Part shown: positions 1 through 23,684 of the stretch, in pieces
Position numbering within the stretch: the stretch's first letter is position 1
Layout of the letters: the number at the start of each line of letters is the position of its first letter
UHGV virus genome: UHGV-0175797
DNA: 23,684 bases
Reading direction: 5' to 3' (one strand)
Source of the DNA: a virus
Translations under genes and position numbers: made by a program
Notes under the pieces: generated by a model
Told to the model about the DNA's origin: nothing
Database searches by the model: none
The model's input: the letters and a program-made list of their open reading frames with translations, nothing else

Positions 1-1777
1 CGAACGCCTCAATGCCCTGACTGAAAACCAGCGCCAGGTGGCTGATGCACGAATCGCGATCGTCAGCGAAGTTCTGAAAGTCGCGCAACAACCTGGTTTC
101 AGCTGTGCGAAGGCTATCCGGTTTATCGTTGACAACCTGGCACGTTCGCAACTGGACGAGCGCATTGTGGCAATGGTTGAGACGGCGAACGCCAAAAAGG
201 GAAACAGCCGTGCGTTGAGTGAAATCACGCTGAAACGCTGGATTGCGGCCTTTAACAAGGCACAGAACGCCGCTGAACGCCTGCTTTTACTGGCACCGGG
301 TAAACGCCAGGAAATAAAAGCCGAAGATATTAACTGGCTGCCCGAATTTCTGGCGCAGTATCGCCAGTCAAACGGCCGACCAATGACCGAGGCTTACGAG
401 GATTTTGTTGCTGAATGGCAGCACCGGCACGCTGATGAGCCTTATATGCTCGATATCATGCCCTCTTATGACACCATTCGCCGCGCAATGAAGAAACTGC
501 CGGAAGTGGTGAAACAAAAAGGCCGGGTAACTGGCAGTGAATACCGTCAGCTTGAGGGATTCACGCGCCGCGACTGGTCCAGAATGCCGGTGAATTATGT
601 CTGGATTGGTGACGGTCACGGCATGAAGCTGAAATGCGCGCACCCGGTTCACGGGCGGCCATTCGCACCGGAAGTGACCTTTGTTATCGACGGTGGCACG
701 CGCTTTGTGGTGGGCTGGAGCCTTGACCTGGCTGAAAATGTTTTCGCCGTAGCCGGTGCCATACAGCACGGTATTCGCCATCATGGCAAACCGTTTCTGT
801 ATTACTCGGATAATGGCTCCGGGGAAACCGCCGACGTCCTGGATAAGGAGATTGTGGGGATACTGCCACGACTGGGGATTAATCACCCGACAGGGATTGC
901 CGGTAATCCGCAGGGACGGGGCATTATCGAACGGCTTAACCGCACATTACCGATGCGCATAGCCCGTAAATACCGCACCTATTTCGGGAAAGGAGCAGAT
1001 CGCGAGACGTTACGTAAAACCAACCGCGATTTACGCTCGGCATTCAGTGCCCTGCAACAGGGCAAACGGCTGAACGCCCGGCAGCAGTCAGCGATGCGTG
1101 ATTTACCGTCCTGGTCTGAACTGATTGATGCCATTCGTGACGGTGTTGAGTGGTACAACAACCGGCCGCACGATGAATTACCCATGAAGCCGAACGGTAA
1201 ACATTACAGCCCGGCGGAGTTCAGAAAAAAACGCCTGGCGGAAGAGGACACGGAAATTGAATGGCTGTCCGATGTTGAACTGCGGGATATGTTCCGGCCG
1301 ATGGTGGAGCGCCCTGTAAGACGCTGTGAAATACGCTGGCTGAATAATATTTACTACGCGCCCGAGCTGCGTGACGAGCATGGCCGTAAGGTACTTATCA
1401 GCTATGACATTCATGATGCCGAACGAATTACCGTGCGCCGCCCGGATGGCAGCGTGATTTGCGAGGCGGTATGGGACGGCAATAAACGCGAAGCCTTCCC
1501 TGTCAGCGCGGAATACTACAAACAGCAGCAGCGCCTTAAAGGCATGCGTAAACGCGCAGAGGAAAAAATCCGTGATGCCGAGGATGAGGTTGTCAACGTG
1601 CTGGAGCACAAGCCGCAGGAGCCCTGGCTGGAAAACATATACCGCCCTGTGGGTAATACGGTGACCGTTCAGCAACCGGTCGCTGACGATGAACCTGATG
1701 AAGAATACGAGCGTAATTTCCAGCGGGGATTGCAACTGCTCGAAGCGAAATTAAAAGAAAGTGATCCGCTGGCCTGA
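1..1777 (+). CDS. Mu-type DDE transposase (MuA family), 5' end lies outside the window
   Basis: The reading frame is open from base 2 with no stop, so track ORF 38..1777 is only the first in-window start. Core motifs resemble the MuA catalytic core (WIGDGHGMKLKC, YYSDNGSGE) and the C-terminus has a Mu-like acidic tail (DDEPDEEYERNFQRGLQLLE). Immediately followed by a MuB-like gene. Confidence 0.85.
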   Translation, partial: ERLNALTENQRQVADARIAIVSEVLKVAQQPGFSCAKAIRFIVDNLARSQLDERIVAMVETANAKKGNSRALSEITLKRWIAAFNKAQNAAERLLLLAPGKRQEIKAEDINWLPEFLAQYRQSNGRPMTEAYEDFVAEWQHRHADEPYMLDIMPSYDTIRRAMKKLPEVVKQKGRVTGSEYRQLEGFTRRDWSRMPVNYVWIGDGHGMKLKCAHPVHGRPFAPEVTFVIDGGTRFVVGWSLDLAENVFAVAGAIQHGIRHHGKPFLYYSDNGSGETADVLDKEIVGILPRLGINHPTGIAGNPQGRGIIERLNRTLPMRIARKYRTYFGKGADRETLRKTNRDLRSAFSALQQGKRLNARQQSAMRDLPSWSELIDAIRDGVEWYNNRPHDELPMKPNGKHYSPAEFRKKRLAEEDTEIEWLSDVELRDMFRPMVERPVRRCEIRWLNNIYYAPELRDEHGRKVLISYDIHDAERITVRRPDGSVICEAVWDGNKREAFPVSAEYYKQQQRLKGMRKRAEEKIRDAEDEVVNVLEHKPQEPWLENIYRPVGNTVTVQQPVADDEPDEEYERNFQRGLQLLEAKLKESDPLA

Positions 1778-2794: not shown

Positions 2795-3016
2795 ATGGCG
2801 GTATTTAATATTCCTGATATTTACGGACGCTTTTACCTGGTTAATTTCGATAACGTGAAGGTGATTTCACTGGCCGAAAATAAAGCATGTGGCGATTTAC
2901 TTTTTGAATTTAATGACCGCACACGAATGGTGATATCTGCCGGACTTGATCGCGAAGGTGCGACAGAAGTTTACAGCGGAATATGCCGTTCTGTTGGTGC
3001 GAAACAAGTCAGCTAA
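2795..3016 (+). CDS. hypothetical small early protein (73 aa), occupies the kil-like position after B
   Basis: ORF starts 2 nt after the B stop, preceded by AGGTG; AT-richer than the backbone. No recognisable motif. Confidence 0.5.
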   Translation: MAVFNIPDIYGRFYLVNFDNVKVISLAENKACGDLLFEFNDRTRMVISAGLDREGATEVYSGICRSVGAKQVS

Positions 3017-3028
3017 ATGAGGTGTTAT

Positions 3029-3283
3029 ATGAATATGCAATCCTGCGGTAACAAAATGAATTTATTCGACTCCCTGAACAGCGCGCGCCGTCTGACCGAA
3101 CTTGCCGGTGCGGTACTGGAACGCAGTAAGCGCTATCCGCAACGTTTTGCACTGAAAACCACGCCGCCGGTAGGCAACGTGCAGGGAACCGGTGAAATTG
3201 AAATCACCATACAGACCAACGGCCTGCGCCGCCGTGTGAAGGCCACCCGCATCAGCGGCTGCACGGTTTACTGGGAGGTGTGA
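3029..3283 (+). CDS. hypothetical small early protein
   Basis: ORF with GAGGTG just upstream; the start is ambiguous between ATG 3017, 3029 and 3035. No recognisable motif. Confidence 0.45.
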   Translation: MNMQSCGNKMNLFDSLNSARRLTELAGAVLERSKRYPQRFALKTTPPVGNVQGTGEIEITIQTNGLRRRVKATRISGCTVYWEV

Positions 3284-6922: not shown

Positions 6923-7251
6923 TAACGACCTTATTTGTTGAATCAGATGAACCTCTTGTGTGTGCCGCCGGAATGCCGCTCTGTGGCGGAACGCTGACCG
7001 GCGTTTATTTCGGGGATTTGCGCGGTTATCCCTGGCATTCACTGGATGACGCATTTCCGCCTGATATGGAGGCTGTCGTGCTGATTGTTCAGTATGGTGA
7101 CCAACAGGAACTGCGCATCGGCCATATGGGGTATGAAGGCTTTTTTATTGATGAAGAAACCGGAGCCTGCCTTGAAGATGAGGACGGACAGGTGACGCAC
7201 TGGTGCCATCTTTCGGCCTTGCCGGAATTACAGGGGATACATAATGGATGA
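6919..7251 (+). CDS. DUF551-like acidic phage protein (110 aa)
   Basis: C-terminal motif VTHWCHLSALPEL resembles the THWMPLPEPP signature of DUF551; the start overlaps the previous stop (ATGA). Confidence 0.5.
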   Translation: MITTLFVESDEPLVCAAGMPLCGGTLTGVYFGDLRGYPWHSLDDAFPPDMEAVVLIVQYGDQQELRIGHMGYEGFFIDEETGACLEDEDGQVTHWCHLSALPELQGIHNG

Positions 7252-7387
7252 GCAAATTGTTGAATGTCCCACCTGTGGAAATGAGGACCCGGAGTATCTG
7301 AAAGAGTGCCCACATTGTGGTGAGATAAAATGTAACCACTGCGATATGGGCGACGACACTGCATGTATAAATTGTGAGGATGAATAA
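7244..7387 (+). CDS. small zinc-ribbon protein (47 aa, four CxxC motifs); absent from the ORF track because it is under 60 aa
   Basis: ATG 7244 overlaps the previous gene's 3' end. Translation MDEQIVECPTCGNEDPEYLKECPHCGEIKCNHCDMGDDTACINCEDE has CPTC, CPHC, CNHC and CINC. Stop TAA at 7385-7387 is followed 1 nt later by the next ATG. Confidence 0.45.
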   Translation: MDEQIVECPTCGNEDPEYLKECPHCGEIKCNHCDMGDDTACINCEDE

Positions 7388-7388
7388 T

Positions 7389-7676
7389 ATGGAAAAAGAA
7401 ATCAAATTTGCGCCTAAATCTATCGACGAAGAACTGGCTAAAATCGGCATGCTTGAACGTATGCGGGACATTATCGAATATGCGATAAAAGAAAATCTTG
7501 CAGCCAGAGAAGCCCTTTTGATAATGGAGCGGGAGATTAACCTGATTAAGGATGCTGTATCTCTGGATAATAAAATAGCCCGCGAGGAATACGTTCGCCG
7601 CAGGCTCGGTGTTGATGGTTCAGCAATTCTTACATCTGAACATTATGCAAAAATTTTTAATCTTTTTCAGCGGTAA
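7389..7676 (+). CDS. hypothetical helical protein (95 aa) in a low-GC segment
   Basis: ATG 7389 is coupled to the preceding stop; the region is AT-rich; the 3' end overlaps a convergent minus-strand ORF by 20 nt. Confidence 0.5.
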   Translation: MEKEIKFAPKSIDEELAKIGMLERMRDIIEYAIKENLAAREALLIMEREINLIKDAVSLDNKIAREEYVRRRLGVDGSAILTSEHYAKIFNLFQR

Positions 7677-7896
7677 TCCCCATACAGGCCCGGAGATTGT
7701 CGAAATGCCAGTCGGTATTAATATATGAGCCATCCTGGATATCTTCTGTATTTTCCGGGGTAGAGTTTTTTTGAGCGAGATTGATAATATGTATTGCCTC
7801 CTCACGGGAAATCAGCCCCTTATCGAACAGGGTTACCATAAGATTTCCAGCCATTGTGAATGCGGCAACATCAAGTGCATTTTTTATATCTGACAT
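7657..7896 (-). CDS. hypothetical small protein (79 aa), reverse-oriented low-GC gene inside the early operon
   Basis: Minus-strand ATG at 7896 with AAGGA about 9 nt upstream; AT-rich; convergent with and antisense to the early operon. Confidence 0.45.
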   Translation of the reverse strand: MSDIKNALDVAAFTMAGNLMVTLFDKGLISREEAIHIINLAQKNSTPENTEDIQDGSYINTDWHFDNLRACMGITAEKD

Positions 7897-7924
7897 AGAT
7901 TTTTCCTTTTATGTTAATTGACAT

Positions 7925-7953
7925 GGCGGTGCGGTAACACCGCCCATTTTTTA
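7925..7953 (+). terminator. rho-independent terminator-like hairpin (GGCGGTG-cggtaa-CACCGCC followed by CATTTTTTAT)
   Basis: 7-bp GC-rich perfect stem with a 6-nt loop and a T-tract on the + strand, located between the low-GC cassette and the gemA-like gene. Confidence 0.55.
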
Positions 7954-7966
7954 TGGAGCCACGATA

Positions 7967-8479
7967 ATGAATCGCGCTTCCCTGATTACCTTAATACATG
8001 TCGCAAAACGCGATCTACAGCTTGACCATGATACCTATACATCCGCGCTGCTGGCAGCCACCGGCAAATCCAGTTGCCGTGATATGTCACCCGGTGAGTT
8101 ATCCCGCGTGCTGGATGTTTTCAAAAAACGCGGTTTTAAAGTGCGTCAGAAGCCGGTTAACCGGGCCTTAAAACCGGGTACGGTGACCGCCAAAATTCGC
8201 GCCATCTGGAAAGTGATGCACCGGCAGGGATTTATCTCTGATGGCGGGGAAACGGCCCTTAACCGCTGGGTGAAATCGCAGACGGCCGCGCAGAACGACG
8301 GCGAAGGTGTGGCTAACTGGCAGTGGCTGGAGCAACAACCCGCGCTGGCCTCTGATGTGCTGGAGCGTCTCAAACGCTGGCACCGCCGCAAAATGCTGGC
8401 AGCCCTGGATATGTCGGAACGTGCAGTGATGAGTTATGAGCGTGTTTGCAGGCTGTATGAAAAATCATTCCCCCGTTAA
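7967..8479 (+). CDS. gemA: GemA-like regulatory protein (Mu gp16 / DUF1018 family)
   Basis: The N-terminal pattern LITLIHVAKRDLQLDHDTYTSALLAATGKSS...ELSRVLDVF matches the GemA family signature; position immediately before the Mor/C-family gene as in Mu. Confidence 0.65.
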   Translation: MNRASLITLIHVAKRDLQLDHDTYTSALLAATGKSSCRDMSPGELSRVLDVFKKRGFKVRQKPVNRALKPGTVTAKIRAIWKVMHRQGFISDGGETALNRWVKSQTAAQNDGEGVANWQWLEQQPALASDVLERLKRWHRRKMLAALDMSERAVMSYERVCRLYEKSFPR

Positions 8480-8549: not shown

Positions 8550-8972
8550 ATGGCTGAAACACAGATGAGCATGTTTGGTGACAGCGAACAGCTGCACGCG
8601 CTGATTGACCGTCTGGATGATATTCCTGATGATGAGCTGAAAAAGAACTGGCCCGGCACGCTGCGGGACCTGGTTGATGTGATCAGTGCTGAACTGCACC
8701 GTCAGGGGATTGAACCTGCTCAGGCGGGAATGCTTGCCCGTAAGGTTGCAGCCGCACAGGCCGGGTACATGGGCGGGCGTGGTTATTATCTCCCGGTCGG
8801 TGAATCCCTTTTCACCGAACTGCGCAATAATGAAATTTTTTCCCGCTGGAGCCAGGGCGAAAAAATTGAAACCCTGCGCCGCCACTACCAGATGTCAGAG
8901 ACGCAGATTTACTCCGTTATCCGCAACCAGCGTCGCCTGCATCAGGAGCGCACGCAGCCCCGGCTTTTCTGA
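8550..8972 (+). CDS. Mor/C-family transcriptional activator (middle/late gene activator), 140 aa
   Basis: Aligns by eye with Mu Mor across the family-conserved segments (FGD, L..L+D.L..EL.R.G+.PA.A, GG..YY+P.G..L, C-terminal HTH ...Y.+S...+Y.VIR..RRL). Length and position (after a terminator, directly before the lysis gene) are more like Mu C. GGAGG RBS. Confidence 0.75.
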   Translation: MAETQMSMFGDSEQLHALIDRLDDIPDDELKKNWPGTLRDLVDVISAELHRQGIEPAQAGMLARKVAAAQAGYMGGRGYYLPVGESLFTELRNNEIFSRWSQGEKIETLRRHYQMSETQIYSVIRNQRRLHQERTQPRLF

Positions 8973-22195: not shown

Positions 22196-23076
22196 TGTTT
22201 CATGTTGATAATAATTCCGGCGTGGCGAATATGCCTGCGCTGGCACCGGCGCAGAGTAATACCACCACCTGGTTTACCGAAGGTGACGGACAAAAAGGTA
22301 TCAGCTGGATTGGTCAGGACTGGCTGAATATTCTCCAGGCCGAACTGCTGAATATTCTGGCTGAAGCCAGTATTCAGCCGGATAAGGCGCAGTTAAACCA
22401 GCTTACGCTGTCCATTAAAGCCATTATCGCTGCGAATGCCTTTTCCCGGAAAAATAACCTGAAAGAAATTGCTGATGCCGGTGCGGAGGCCCAGCGTCTG
22501 GCCCGTGGTTATCTTGGTCTGGGGACGCTTGCCACAAAAAACAGTCTTGGTCCCGCTGACGTTAATGCCCTGGCGAAGGATCAGAATCTCGCCGACCTGG
22601 AGAATAAGGGAACCGCCCGTAATAATCTGGATGTTTACAGCAAAAGCGAAGGTGATAACCGTTACCTGCGCAGGGAGCAGAACGGCGCAGACATTCCGGA
22701 TAAAGGGGCTTTTATCGATAACGTCGGTTTACGGGAAACGGTAAACAGGGCGGCGAATGCCCTGCCATCGGACGGCACCGCCGTTGCCGCGAACAGGCTG
22801 GCAAATGCCCACACAATTAATGGTGTTCCCTTTGACGGGACGCAGGATATCACTATCTCATCAGGAACAGTAACCGCCATAAGACTGGGGTCGGTGACCG
22901 CACATATGCCCGGAACATGGGAAAGCTGGGATCTGAATCTGGGGGGCGGCAATGTTCTTACCGGAATTAAAGTACAGGATGTCGGTAAGAATACGGCAGA
23001 TAACGTCGGCGGCGTGTATTACCGGCCGTTGCAGTATCTGTTAAATGGAGCATGGGTGACGGCTGCAAGTATATAA
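22195..23076 (+). CDS. tail fibre protein (constant N-terminal part plus currently fused variable C-terminal part)
   Basis: 293 aa; N-terminus typical of P2/Mu-type fibres; contains a gix-like crossover site at 22712..22737; AT-richer 3' part. Confidence 0.75.
22712..22737. other. gix/hix-like 26-bp recombination (inversion crossover) site inside the tail fibre gene
   Basis: TTATCGATAACG-TC-GGTTTACGGGAA. Against the Mu gixL site as I remember it (TTATCCAAAACC-TC-GGTTTACAGGAA in this orientation), about 22 of 26 positions match, including the central TC. Confidence 0.6.
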
Positions 23077-23084
23077 TGATATTC

Positions 23085-23110
23085 AGAAGGCCTTCCGGCC
23101 TTCTTTATTA
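23085..23110. terminator. bidirectional terminator-like hairpin between convergent fibre and chaperone genes (GAAGGCC-ttcc-GGCCTTC, A/T runs on both sides)
   Basis: Perfect 7-bp GC-rich stem with a 4-nt loop, followed by TTTATTA on the + strand and preceded by T-rich sequence on the minus strand. Confidence 0.6.
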
Positions 23111-23629
23111 CTGTGGCTGCTCAGGCCATTTAATGGCGTTAAATTCAGCTTCTGTTTTAATGGCGGGTAGTTCCATTTTCTTCACCTGACTGATGTATGC
23201 CATCCATTGGGTAAGTGCTGCTCTGTCTTCATCGCTGATGGTGCCCAGTTGTAGCTCCGTTCTCCAGTCATTAATTTTTTCATATGCCTGATTAAGATAT
23301 GACTGGCGCATTGCTTCCAGTTTTCTTGCGTAGTTAACCGGAATACGGGAGATTATGCCATTATCAAACTTCCAGTTTCCTGAAATATCCGTGCCTTCAG
23401 GGAGTTCATCGACCTCAACCACAGAAAACCCCGCAGGATACAGCGCCGAGGCGTCCTGTGATATTGAGCAGATAACGCCGCTGTCAGGTGTTATGCAAAG
23501 TTTATATTTTTTGGTGAATAATGGCAGGGATTCGTAGAAATCCTTACCATCTTCACTCTGGAAATACTGAACATTATTACCATATGGCATATTTTCAGGA
23601 TAATAACGGGTTATATTTTTTAGTTCCAT
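23108..23629 (-). CDS. tail fibre assembly protein (Tfa / Mu U-family chaperone), opposite strand
   Basis: 173 aa; typical Tfa features (N-terminal MELKNITRYYPEN, central Tyr/Asp-rich region, C-terminal AEFNAIKWPEQP); AGGAGG RBS on the minus strand; AT-rich. Confidence 0.8.
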   Translation of the reverse strand: MELKNITRYYPENMPYGNNVQYFQSEDGKDFYESLPLFTKKYKLCITPDSGVICSISQDASALYPAGFSVVEVDELPEGTDISGNWKFDNGIISRIPVNYARKLEAMRQSYLNQAYEKINDWRTELQLGTISDEDRAALTQWMAYISQVKKMELPAIKTEAEFNAIKWPEQPQ

Positions 23630-23684
23630 AAAATCCTCCTGGAAATAAATCTGTTTTAAAATATATTATTTACTGACTATTTAT

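Follow-up and report, generated by a model that had tools for sequence, protein, structure and literature searches.

The gp14/gp15 module of an Escherichia coli Mu-like prophage pairs a conserved early gene with a reverse-oriented accessory gene

Results

A convergent gene pair lies directly upstream of gemA

We examined positions 7389..7966 of the UHGV virus genome UHGV-0175797, an AT-rich stretch between the early genes and gemA that carries a rightward gene, a leftward gene converging on it and a terminator-like hairpin. The whole stretch of DNA analyzed, 23,684 nucleotides (nt) long, is called the window throughout. It is a Mu-like prophage of Escherichia coli, in which the transposase A and B genes are followed by the semi-essential early region, gemA, mor and then the lysozyme and structural genes; over bases 7200..8100 it matches strain JE86-ST05 at 99.8% identity. 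Sequence comparison identifies 7389..7966 as the Mu gp14/gp15 module of this prophage, a pair that is already annotated and not a new kind of element. What is new here is the family-wide homology of gp15, a putative terminator for the minus strand inside gp14, the sharp limits within which the block is hypervariable, the alternative reverse-oriented genes that can occupy it and a probable mis-call in a current Mu record.

The GC content of 7389..7966, 0.413 compared with 0.547 for the window, ranks in the bottom 0.5% among all stretches of 578 bp, in line with the AT-rich character noted in an earlier reading made from the sequence alone (hereafter the original prediction). The 95-amino-acid (aa) and 79-aa genes, the ribosome-binding site of the latter and the 20-nt overlap of their 3′ ends all lie where that reading had put them. 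The features of the stretch are as follows.

7389..7676, plus strand: gp14 (E15) homologue, 95 aa, with an ATG start and GAGGA 8 nt 5′ of it; last early gene before the plus-strand terminator
7566..7606, minus strand: intrinsic-terminator-like element in the gp14 coding sequence (hairpin 7577..7606, T-rich tail ~7566..7576), ~50 nt past the gp15 stop
7657..7676, both strands: convergent 3′ overlap of gp14 and gp15, 20 nt, read from the ends of the open reading frames (ORFs) and kept in other loci
7657..7896, minus strand: gp15 (Mup15) homologue, 79 aa, reverse-oriented, with its own ribosome-binding site
7767..7773, minus strand: A7 homopolymer in the variable linker of gp15, a natural −1/+1 frameshift site
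7904..7908, minus strand: Shine–Dalgarno sequence AAGGA of gp15, 8 nt before the ATG; AAGGA/AGGAG-type motifs stand at the equivalent place in homologous loci
7925..7954, plus strand: predicted intrinsic terminator (7-bp GC stem, 6-nt loop, T6 tract), between the gp15 start and the gemA ribosome-binding site

The rightward gene belongs to the conserved early genes of the operon. Its product is 49% identical to Mu gp14 (E15; NP_050618.1) over the full length (BLASTP, E=1e-30), matches phrog_6075 in PHROGs at 5.4e-44 and corresponds to WP_000409993.1 in the Prokaryotic Genome Annotation Pipeline (PGAP). Like its Mu counterpart, it follows a zinc-ribbon gp13 homologue and carries the conserved A-R-E/D..V-R-R-R/E-L-G motif; the two differ in their overlap with gp15, which is 20 nt in the window and 62 nt in Mu. 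Searches of gp14 against Pfam, NCBIfam and PADLOC gave no match, and PHROGs returned function-unknown families only. A match to kinesin KIF9 among PDB profiles (E=1.4e-4) covers a short helical, coiled-coil-like stretch and was judged non-homologous.

The leftward frame is a coding gene of the Mu gp15 family

The leftward ORF is a genuine coding gene, as the original prediction had assumed. Its coding potential holds up across close relatives that differ at 6–30 of its 237 sites: the ratio of nonsynonymous to synonymous differences (pN/pS) is 0.27–0.29 in its own frame, compared with 0.52–1.37 in the five other frames. One could instead regard it as a chance open frame in AT-rich DNA, the real feature being merely an intergenic terminator region, and the current GenBank Mu record (AF083977) does annotate a plus-strand ORF, Mu_54 (55 aa; 2933..3100 of the Mu locus L001), in place of the minus-strand ORF (L001 2869..3135). 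This alternative retains virtually no probability. The low pN/pS is specific to the minus-strand frame, protein homologues at 20–40% identity share conserved motifs and synteny, the gene has its own ribosome-binding site and terminator-like element, and it is recognized by RefSeq, by PGAP (WP_001280088.1) and by PHROGs (phrog_32893, 8.2e-45); together, these tests refute it. Because both the cross-subfamily homology and the frame test in the window lineage favor the minus-strand ORF, Mu_54 was probably called in error on the strand antisense to gp15.

A leftward ORF lies at exactly the equivalent place in Mu, in D108, where it is unannotated, and in SfMu (SfMu_16). The Mu version is listed as Mup15/gp15 in RefSeq NC_000929 (NP_050619.1; 7896..8162, minus strand, hypothetical), and a longer version, 'F-134', had appeared in the 1991 record of the Mu left end (M64097). 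A search of the literature turned up no account of Mup15 or of a leftward transcript.

Pairwise BLASTP related the window gp15 to the D108 minus-strand ORF (E=2e-6) and gave no significant match to Mu gp15. Profiles were therefore needed to link the window protein with its Mu counterpart, and hhalign aligned the window gp15 profile with the Mu-gp15 subfamily at a probability of 97.1% (E=5.2e-11). The two genes have in common their position between gp14/E15 and gemA, their reverse orientation, the convergent overlap with gp14 and a homologous N-terminal helical hairpin motif, and Mu, like the window, has a GGCGGTG..CACCGCC hairpin upstream of gemA. They differ in that the proteins are only ~25% identical and in that the C-terminal part of the window protein, with its DWHLDNL motif, belongs to another subfamily.

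Searching 1.84 billion cluster representatives with a gp15 profile retrieved 24 proteins at E ≤ 0.001, all of them small (60–119 aa) except two repetitive ones. The match of a 4745-aa spidroin-like protein (P0016, E=4e-15) is the sum of 23 weak repeat matches, and we rejected it as a repeat-summation artifact without homology. The family comprises three subfamilies, with profile–profile comparison linking the Mu type to the other two, and its named members come from E. coli, E. albertii, Salmonella, Klebsiella michiganensis and Vibrio mediterranei.

The arrangement recurs from E. coli to Vibrio

Mu, D108, SfMu and prophages of E. coli, Salmonella, Klebsiella and Vibrio share a common layout, in which gp14 and gp15 converge, a plus-strand terminator-like hairpin stands upstream of the gp15 start and a second hairpin lies within gp14. 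In seven further loci with distant gp15 homologues (~25–40% identical), gp15 lies in reverse orientation every time, converging on a gp14 homologue. A gp14 homologue is present beside every gp15 homologue examined, and the convergent overlap described in the original prediction is conserved in 10 loci, at 20–98 nt. gp15 usually adjoins gemA as well; the Vibrio-type loci L043 and L044 have other genes between the two, and the constant partner of gp15 is therefore gp14 rather than gemA. This synteny, together with the homology to the annotated Mu pair, does away with the idea of a novel orphan insertion.

The gp14–gp15 block is a sharply bounded and replaceable cassette

In Mu, D108 and a metagenomic relative (L045), the flanking DNA is mostly 88–100% identical, and identity is ~30–60% from the first gp14 codons to the hairpin. 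The proteins of Mu and D108 follow the same pattern: gp13, GemA and Mor are 97%, 96% and 98% identical, respectively, compared with 32% for gp14 and 19% for gp15. By analogy, the boundaries of this divergence correspond to the edges of 7389..7966 in the window, in agreement with the discrete cassette that the original prediction had delimited. Judged from these alignments, the gp14–gp15 block is a sharply bounded, fast-diverging and replaceable cassette.

Several relatives carry something else at this place. Five loci (L008, L012, L013, L014 and L037) whose gemA is 92–100% identical to that of the window contain an alternative module of two plus-strand genes (130 and 102 aa) and a 136-aa minus-strand gene. 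The latter is DUF2513-like (Pfam E=6.6e-5, below the curated cutoff), lies ~475..65 nt upstream of gemA and converges on the upstream plus-strand gene with a 39-nt overlap; a GGCGGC..GCCGCC hairpin precedes gemA. Just a 3′ remnant of the DUF2513-like reverse gene is left in L010. In E. coli S1-CAM-01-A (L005, 879..1859), an IS5-like ISKpn26 transposase between a DUF551-like gene and gemA takes the place of the gp13–gp15 block.

Losses are equally clear. O157-type Mu-like prophages have neither gp14, gp15 nor the hairpin, and gp15 is missing from the Yersinia phages vB_YpM_3 and vB_YpM_23, which retain gp14 and the hairpin. In vB_YpM_3 (L050, ~1500..1555; compared with SfMu, L049, and Mu, L001), gp15 is cleanly deleted between CTGAT short repeats, with gp14, the hairpin and gemA intact. 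gp15 is therefore dispensable for plaque formation and gp14 is tolerated alone; the block as a whole is not needed for lytic growth. The variability among related prophages, which the original prediction had suggested checking, takes the form of absence (O157-type), deletion (vB_YpM_3) and replacement (for example, L008 and L013), and gp15, on this comparative evidence, is an accessory gene.

The pairing of the two genes brings to mind a toxin–antidote-like system, in which gp14 would be a host-toxic early protein and gp15, made in the lysogen, would neutralize leaky gp14, or in which the gp15 mRNA would act as an antisense to the gp14 3′ end. The homologues co-occur and overlap convergently, and the two genes diverge as one block (Mantel r=0.62, p=0.003, a correlation driven largely by one close pair); low-level activity of the early promoter Pe has also been reported in Mu lysogens (PMC3820752). 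We nevertheless consider this explanation very unlikely. It is weakened by vB_YpM_3 and vB_YpM_23, which have an intact gp14 and no gp15, and the identity patterns of the two proteins are incongruent: D108 and L045 share 57% for gp14 and 28% for gp15, and L040 and L045 share 36% and 48%. Nor does the pair resemble a type II toxin–antitoxin system, given that its genes converge, unlike those of a co-directional, autoregulated type II operon, that neither gp14 nor gp15 has a family match and that gp14, which matched no toxin family, occurs without gp15 in vB_YpM_3.

Each strand has its own terminator-like hairpin

The hairpin that the original prediction had placed just upstream of the gp15 start, as a strong plus-strand terminator, is present. 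It reads GGCGGTG-CGGTAA-CACCGCC at 7925..7944, followed by CATTTTTTAT, and with its tail, folded as 7915..7960, reaches −13.3 kcal/mol. Terminator-like sites number 2, compared with 0.9 ± 1.1 in shuffled sequences, and a single site alone is not above chance. A GC-rich hairpin upstream of the gp15 start recurs, however, in 11/11 loci compared, one of which has a different cassette, with several different stem sequences and with a T-rich tract of variable quality after it on the early-operon strand. Because wobble pairs make the plus-sense RNA the more stable in L043, L044, L045 and L013, we read the hairpin at 7925..7954 as a predicted rightward terminator rather than a sequence-specific operator. 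A protein operator was rejected on the further ground that the stem sequence varies by locus and the pairing is retained. Just 5′ of the hairpin, at 7918..7923 on the plus strand, stands a perfect −35 hexamer, TTGACA, with no acceptable −10 at 16–19 nt.

A second element, which the original prediction had missed, lies on the minus strand at 7566..7606, in the gp14 codons for the conserved motif A-R-D/E..V-R-R-E/R-L-G. The hairpin is present in 9/9 diverged loci, where 95.6% of the stem is paired and two compensatory pairs occur (UA/CG and GC/AU). About a dozen of its pairs are G·U, valid solely on the minus-sense RNA and read as A·C mismatches on the plus strand, and the minus-sense fold is the more stable in 9/9 loci, by 0.4 to 6.9 kcal/mol. 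The z-score of the hairpin in the window is only −2.05, so the case for a minus-strand terminator rests on conservation. The equivalent element in the Mu record AF083977 is listed as a TransTermHP terminator (7839..7873). The hairpin inside gp14 looks like the own terminator of gp15, and our comparisons show two convergent units, each with a predicted strand-specific terminator, at the junction of the semi-essential early genes and gemA–mor.

In the Vibrio-type loci, the 5′ leader of the gp15 homologue (L043 3906..4000; L044 3886..4000) contains, in the stretch from the hairpin to the ATG, a long inverted repeat, CTCCTGTTA ... TAACAGGAG, which pairs with the Shine–Dalgarno sequence of the reverse gene. 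The repeat suggests translational control of the reverse gene and implies a transcript start that is no further downstream than the terminator hairpin. A TAACAT-type −10 just 5′ of the gp15 ribosome-binding site was rejected, as the transcription start would fall downstream of that site.

gp15 is a small, mostly acidic protein predicted to be helical

The isoelectric point (pI) is 4.3–6.2 in most members of the gp15 family, and the window protein has a pI of 4.5 and a net charge of −7. Most members are insufficiently hydrophobic for a membrane span. An AlphaFold2 (AF2) model built on 20 sequences has a predicted local distance difference test (pLDDT) score of 78.8, compared with 65 for a poor earlier model built on 6 sequences. 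It has three main helices: two form a long N-terminal helical hairpin (residues 2–25 and 31–45, pLDDT > 90), followed by a short helix in the variable linker (50–54) and a C-terminal helix (62–71). The original prediction had found no motif by which to place either protein of the pair; family and fold searches likewise gave no functional match, but both proteins do find a place, as homologues of Mu gp14 and gp15. For gp15, PHROGs gave a function-unknown family only, and the fold search was uninformative. A PDB-profile match to the N-terminal domain of T4 MotA (E=0.02, 27 residues) is below significance, was not recovered by the fold search and was judged non-homologous.

The homopolymer in the linker varies in nature. 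The A7 tract has become A6 (L053, DNA alignment) or A8, and in another lineage a C-run has grown to C8; the affected proteins (P0007 and P0008) retain the N-terminal 43–47 aa and gain an out-of-frame tail of ~45 aa. These variants come from one NCBI assembly and an independent ENA metagenome, and the frameshifts could reflect decay or phase variation.

Discussion

A leftward unit with a possible role in conflict

With confidence that we would put at about even, we propose that the separate leftward unit formed by gp15 has an accessory role in conflict and is shut off by early transcription. gp15 would be made while Pe is silent, be it in the lysogen or during the first minutes that follow DNA entry. 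In lytic growth, convergent early transcription, antisense to the whole of gp15, would silence it, and the rightward terminator would then limit read-through into gemA–mor. The product may be a small, mostly acidic, soluble helical protein that binds another protein rather than DNA, and it might act as an accessory factor in phage–host or phage–phage conflict, for example in exclusion, defense or counter-defense. The allelic diversity fits a role in conflict.

A moron is an additional gene, equipped with a promoter and a terminator of its own, that is found in some relatives only and often has an atypical GC content. The original prediction had applied this label to the leftward gene. gp15 is moron-like in its presence/absence and replacement polymorphism, its low GC content, its own terminator-like element and an orientation independent of the operon. 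It is unlike the sporadic morons of lambdoid and other temperate phages in that it overlaps a conserved early gene, keeps its synteny across genera and has no promoter that we could find. The label stands for polymorphism, base composition and terminator, is tentative for promoter and lysogenic expression, and agrees poorly with the synteny; kept in order from E. coli to Vibrio, the pair resembles a semi-core variable module more than a sporadic moron.

A functional comparison comes from another transposable phage. In the early/immunity region of Pseudomonas phage Fc02, which has reverse-oriented or overlapping exclusion genes (olg1/olg2/gene 10), a lysogen-expressed gene is reported to exclude superinfecting phages (PMC9936078). 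Both Fc02 and the window have small genes that overlap genes of the lytic early operon on the opposite strand. The Fc02 genes, however, adjoin the repressor at the left end and are not placed before gemA, and the resemblance is one of analogy only (PMC9936078).

Several observations weigh against a lysogen-type conflict gene. The timing of gp15 expression is purely what we infer. Scans with a promoter-prediction tool and a position weight matrix over 11 loci revealed no convincing or positionally conserved sigma-70 promoter upstream of gp15, the best candidates being weak or unconserved. The hairpin is 28–45 nt from the gp15 ATG and ~15–20 nt from its ribosome-binding site, a gap too short to leave room for a promoter plus a leader with a ribosome-binding site. 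Even at E ≤ 1, no PADLOC-DB 2.0 family matched gp14, gp15, the Mu or D108 version of gp15 or the DUF2513-like protein, and Pfam and NCBIfam gave no match for gp15. The Mu hairpin has no good T-tract (CCCTTTCC), the tract of the window being much better, and a rightward 'semi-early promoter' is marked across the equivalent region in the Mu record, so the element may not be a simple terminator everywhere. Lastly, a gene order conserved from E. coli to Vibrio would be expected of a phage-intrinsic regulatory function more than of a moron.

These last points lead to the alternative of a phage-intrinsic regulator of the early-to-middle switch. Here, leftward gp15 transcription and the rightward terminator would attenuate Pe read-through into gemA–mor, and gp15 would modulate gp14, GemA, Mor or RNA polymerase, setting the timing of Mor or the lysis–lysogeny decision. 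Such a role would suit the position kept directly upstream of gemA–mor, or of the operon containing them, the synteny that reaches Vibrio and the semi-early promoter placed here in the Mu record. The plus-strand terminator also always accompanies the reverse gene and is missing where that gene is absent (O157-type), and the weak similarity to MotA would point the same way. We regard a switch regulator as unlikely all the same. Plaque-forming relatives do without gp15, and O157-type prophages do without the whole module; because an unrelated DUF2513-like protein can fill the gp15 slot, no specific regulatory protein is required. A regulator would not usually fall to 19% identity, as the Mu and D108 proteins do, with its partners GemA and Mor at 96–98%, and the MotA similarity has the shortcomings given above.

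A further alternative moves expression of gp15 to the moment of DNA entry. As an immediate-early counter-defense gene, gp15 would be expressed from its own promoter, ~8 kb from Pe, before early transcription silences it, and the acidic helical protein would inhibit a host defense or nuclease. The small size and mostly acidic character of gp15, its fast divergence and allelic variability and its accessory status are all compatible with such a role, and the reverse orientation would uncouple the gene from the long early operon. The promoter on which this explanation depends was not identified in the scans of 11 loci, no known anti-defense protein resembles gp15 in sequence or fold, and lysogenic expression would account just as well for a prophage gene that has its own terminator; we therefore find it decidedly unlikely.

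In a more speculative form of the proposed conflict role, which we rate as a long shot, gp14/gp15 would be a second allelic specificity module beside the c/ner immunity region. A prophage gp15 would block or abort infection by Mu-like phages with a different allele, the early gp14 of the incoming or induced phage would neutralize the cognate gp15, and convergent transcription would switch between the lysogenic and lytic states. If true, this would explain identities of 19–32% amid neighbors at 96–98%, the tail-to-tail overlap and the presence of one terminator per strand. Either a conflict gene or a specificity module would add a new layer to Mu-type immunity; otherwise, gp15 is an ordinary accessory gene.

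To our knowledge, the functions of most genes in the semi-essential early region of Mu have remained unknown since the 1980s. gp15 is the sole ORF of the early region here that reads against the operon, it is widely conserved, and other reverse-oriented genes can take its slot before gemA. 'cim', a function of the Mu early region defined by genetics, might map here.

Neighboring genes and other observations

The genes that flank the module are all on the plus strand.

7244..7387, plus strand: gp13/E14 homologue, 47 aa, a four-cysteine zinc ribbon (phrog_5584, 3e-26), translationally coupled to its neighbors
7967..8479, plus strand: gemA (Pfam GemA, 1.8e-28), first gene past the plus-strand terminator
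8550..8972, plus strand: mor (Pfam Mor, 6.7e-31), next after gemA

The gp13 homologue is unannotated in the RefSeq record of a near-identical prophage, which has no coding sequence within 1552–1690 of L004. Rfam gave no match for the region, and a related-locus search over genome contigs returned no relatives. A second low-GC stretch of the window (23041..23684, about 0.41–0.43) contains a minus-strand tail-fiber assembly gene (23108..23629; Pfam Caudo_TAP, 5e-19). This gene comes after a plus-strand ORF of 293 aa, probably a tail fiber, in a layout like that of the invertible G segment of Mu.

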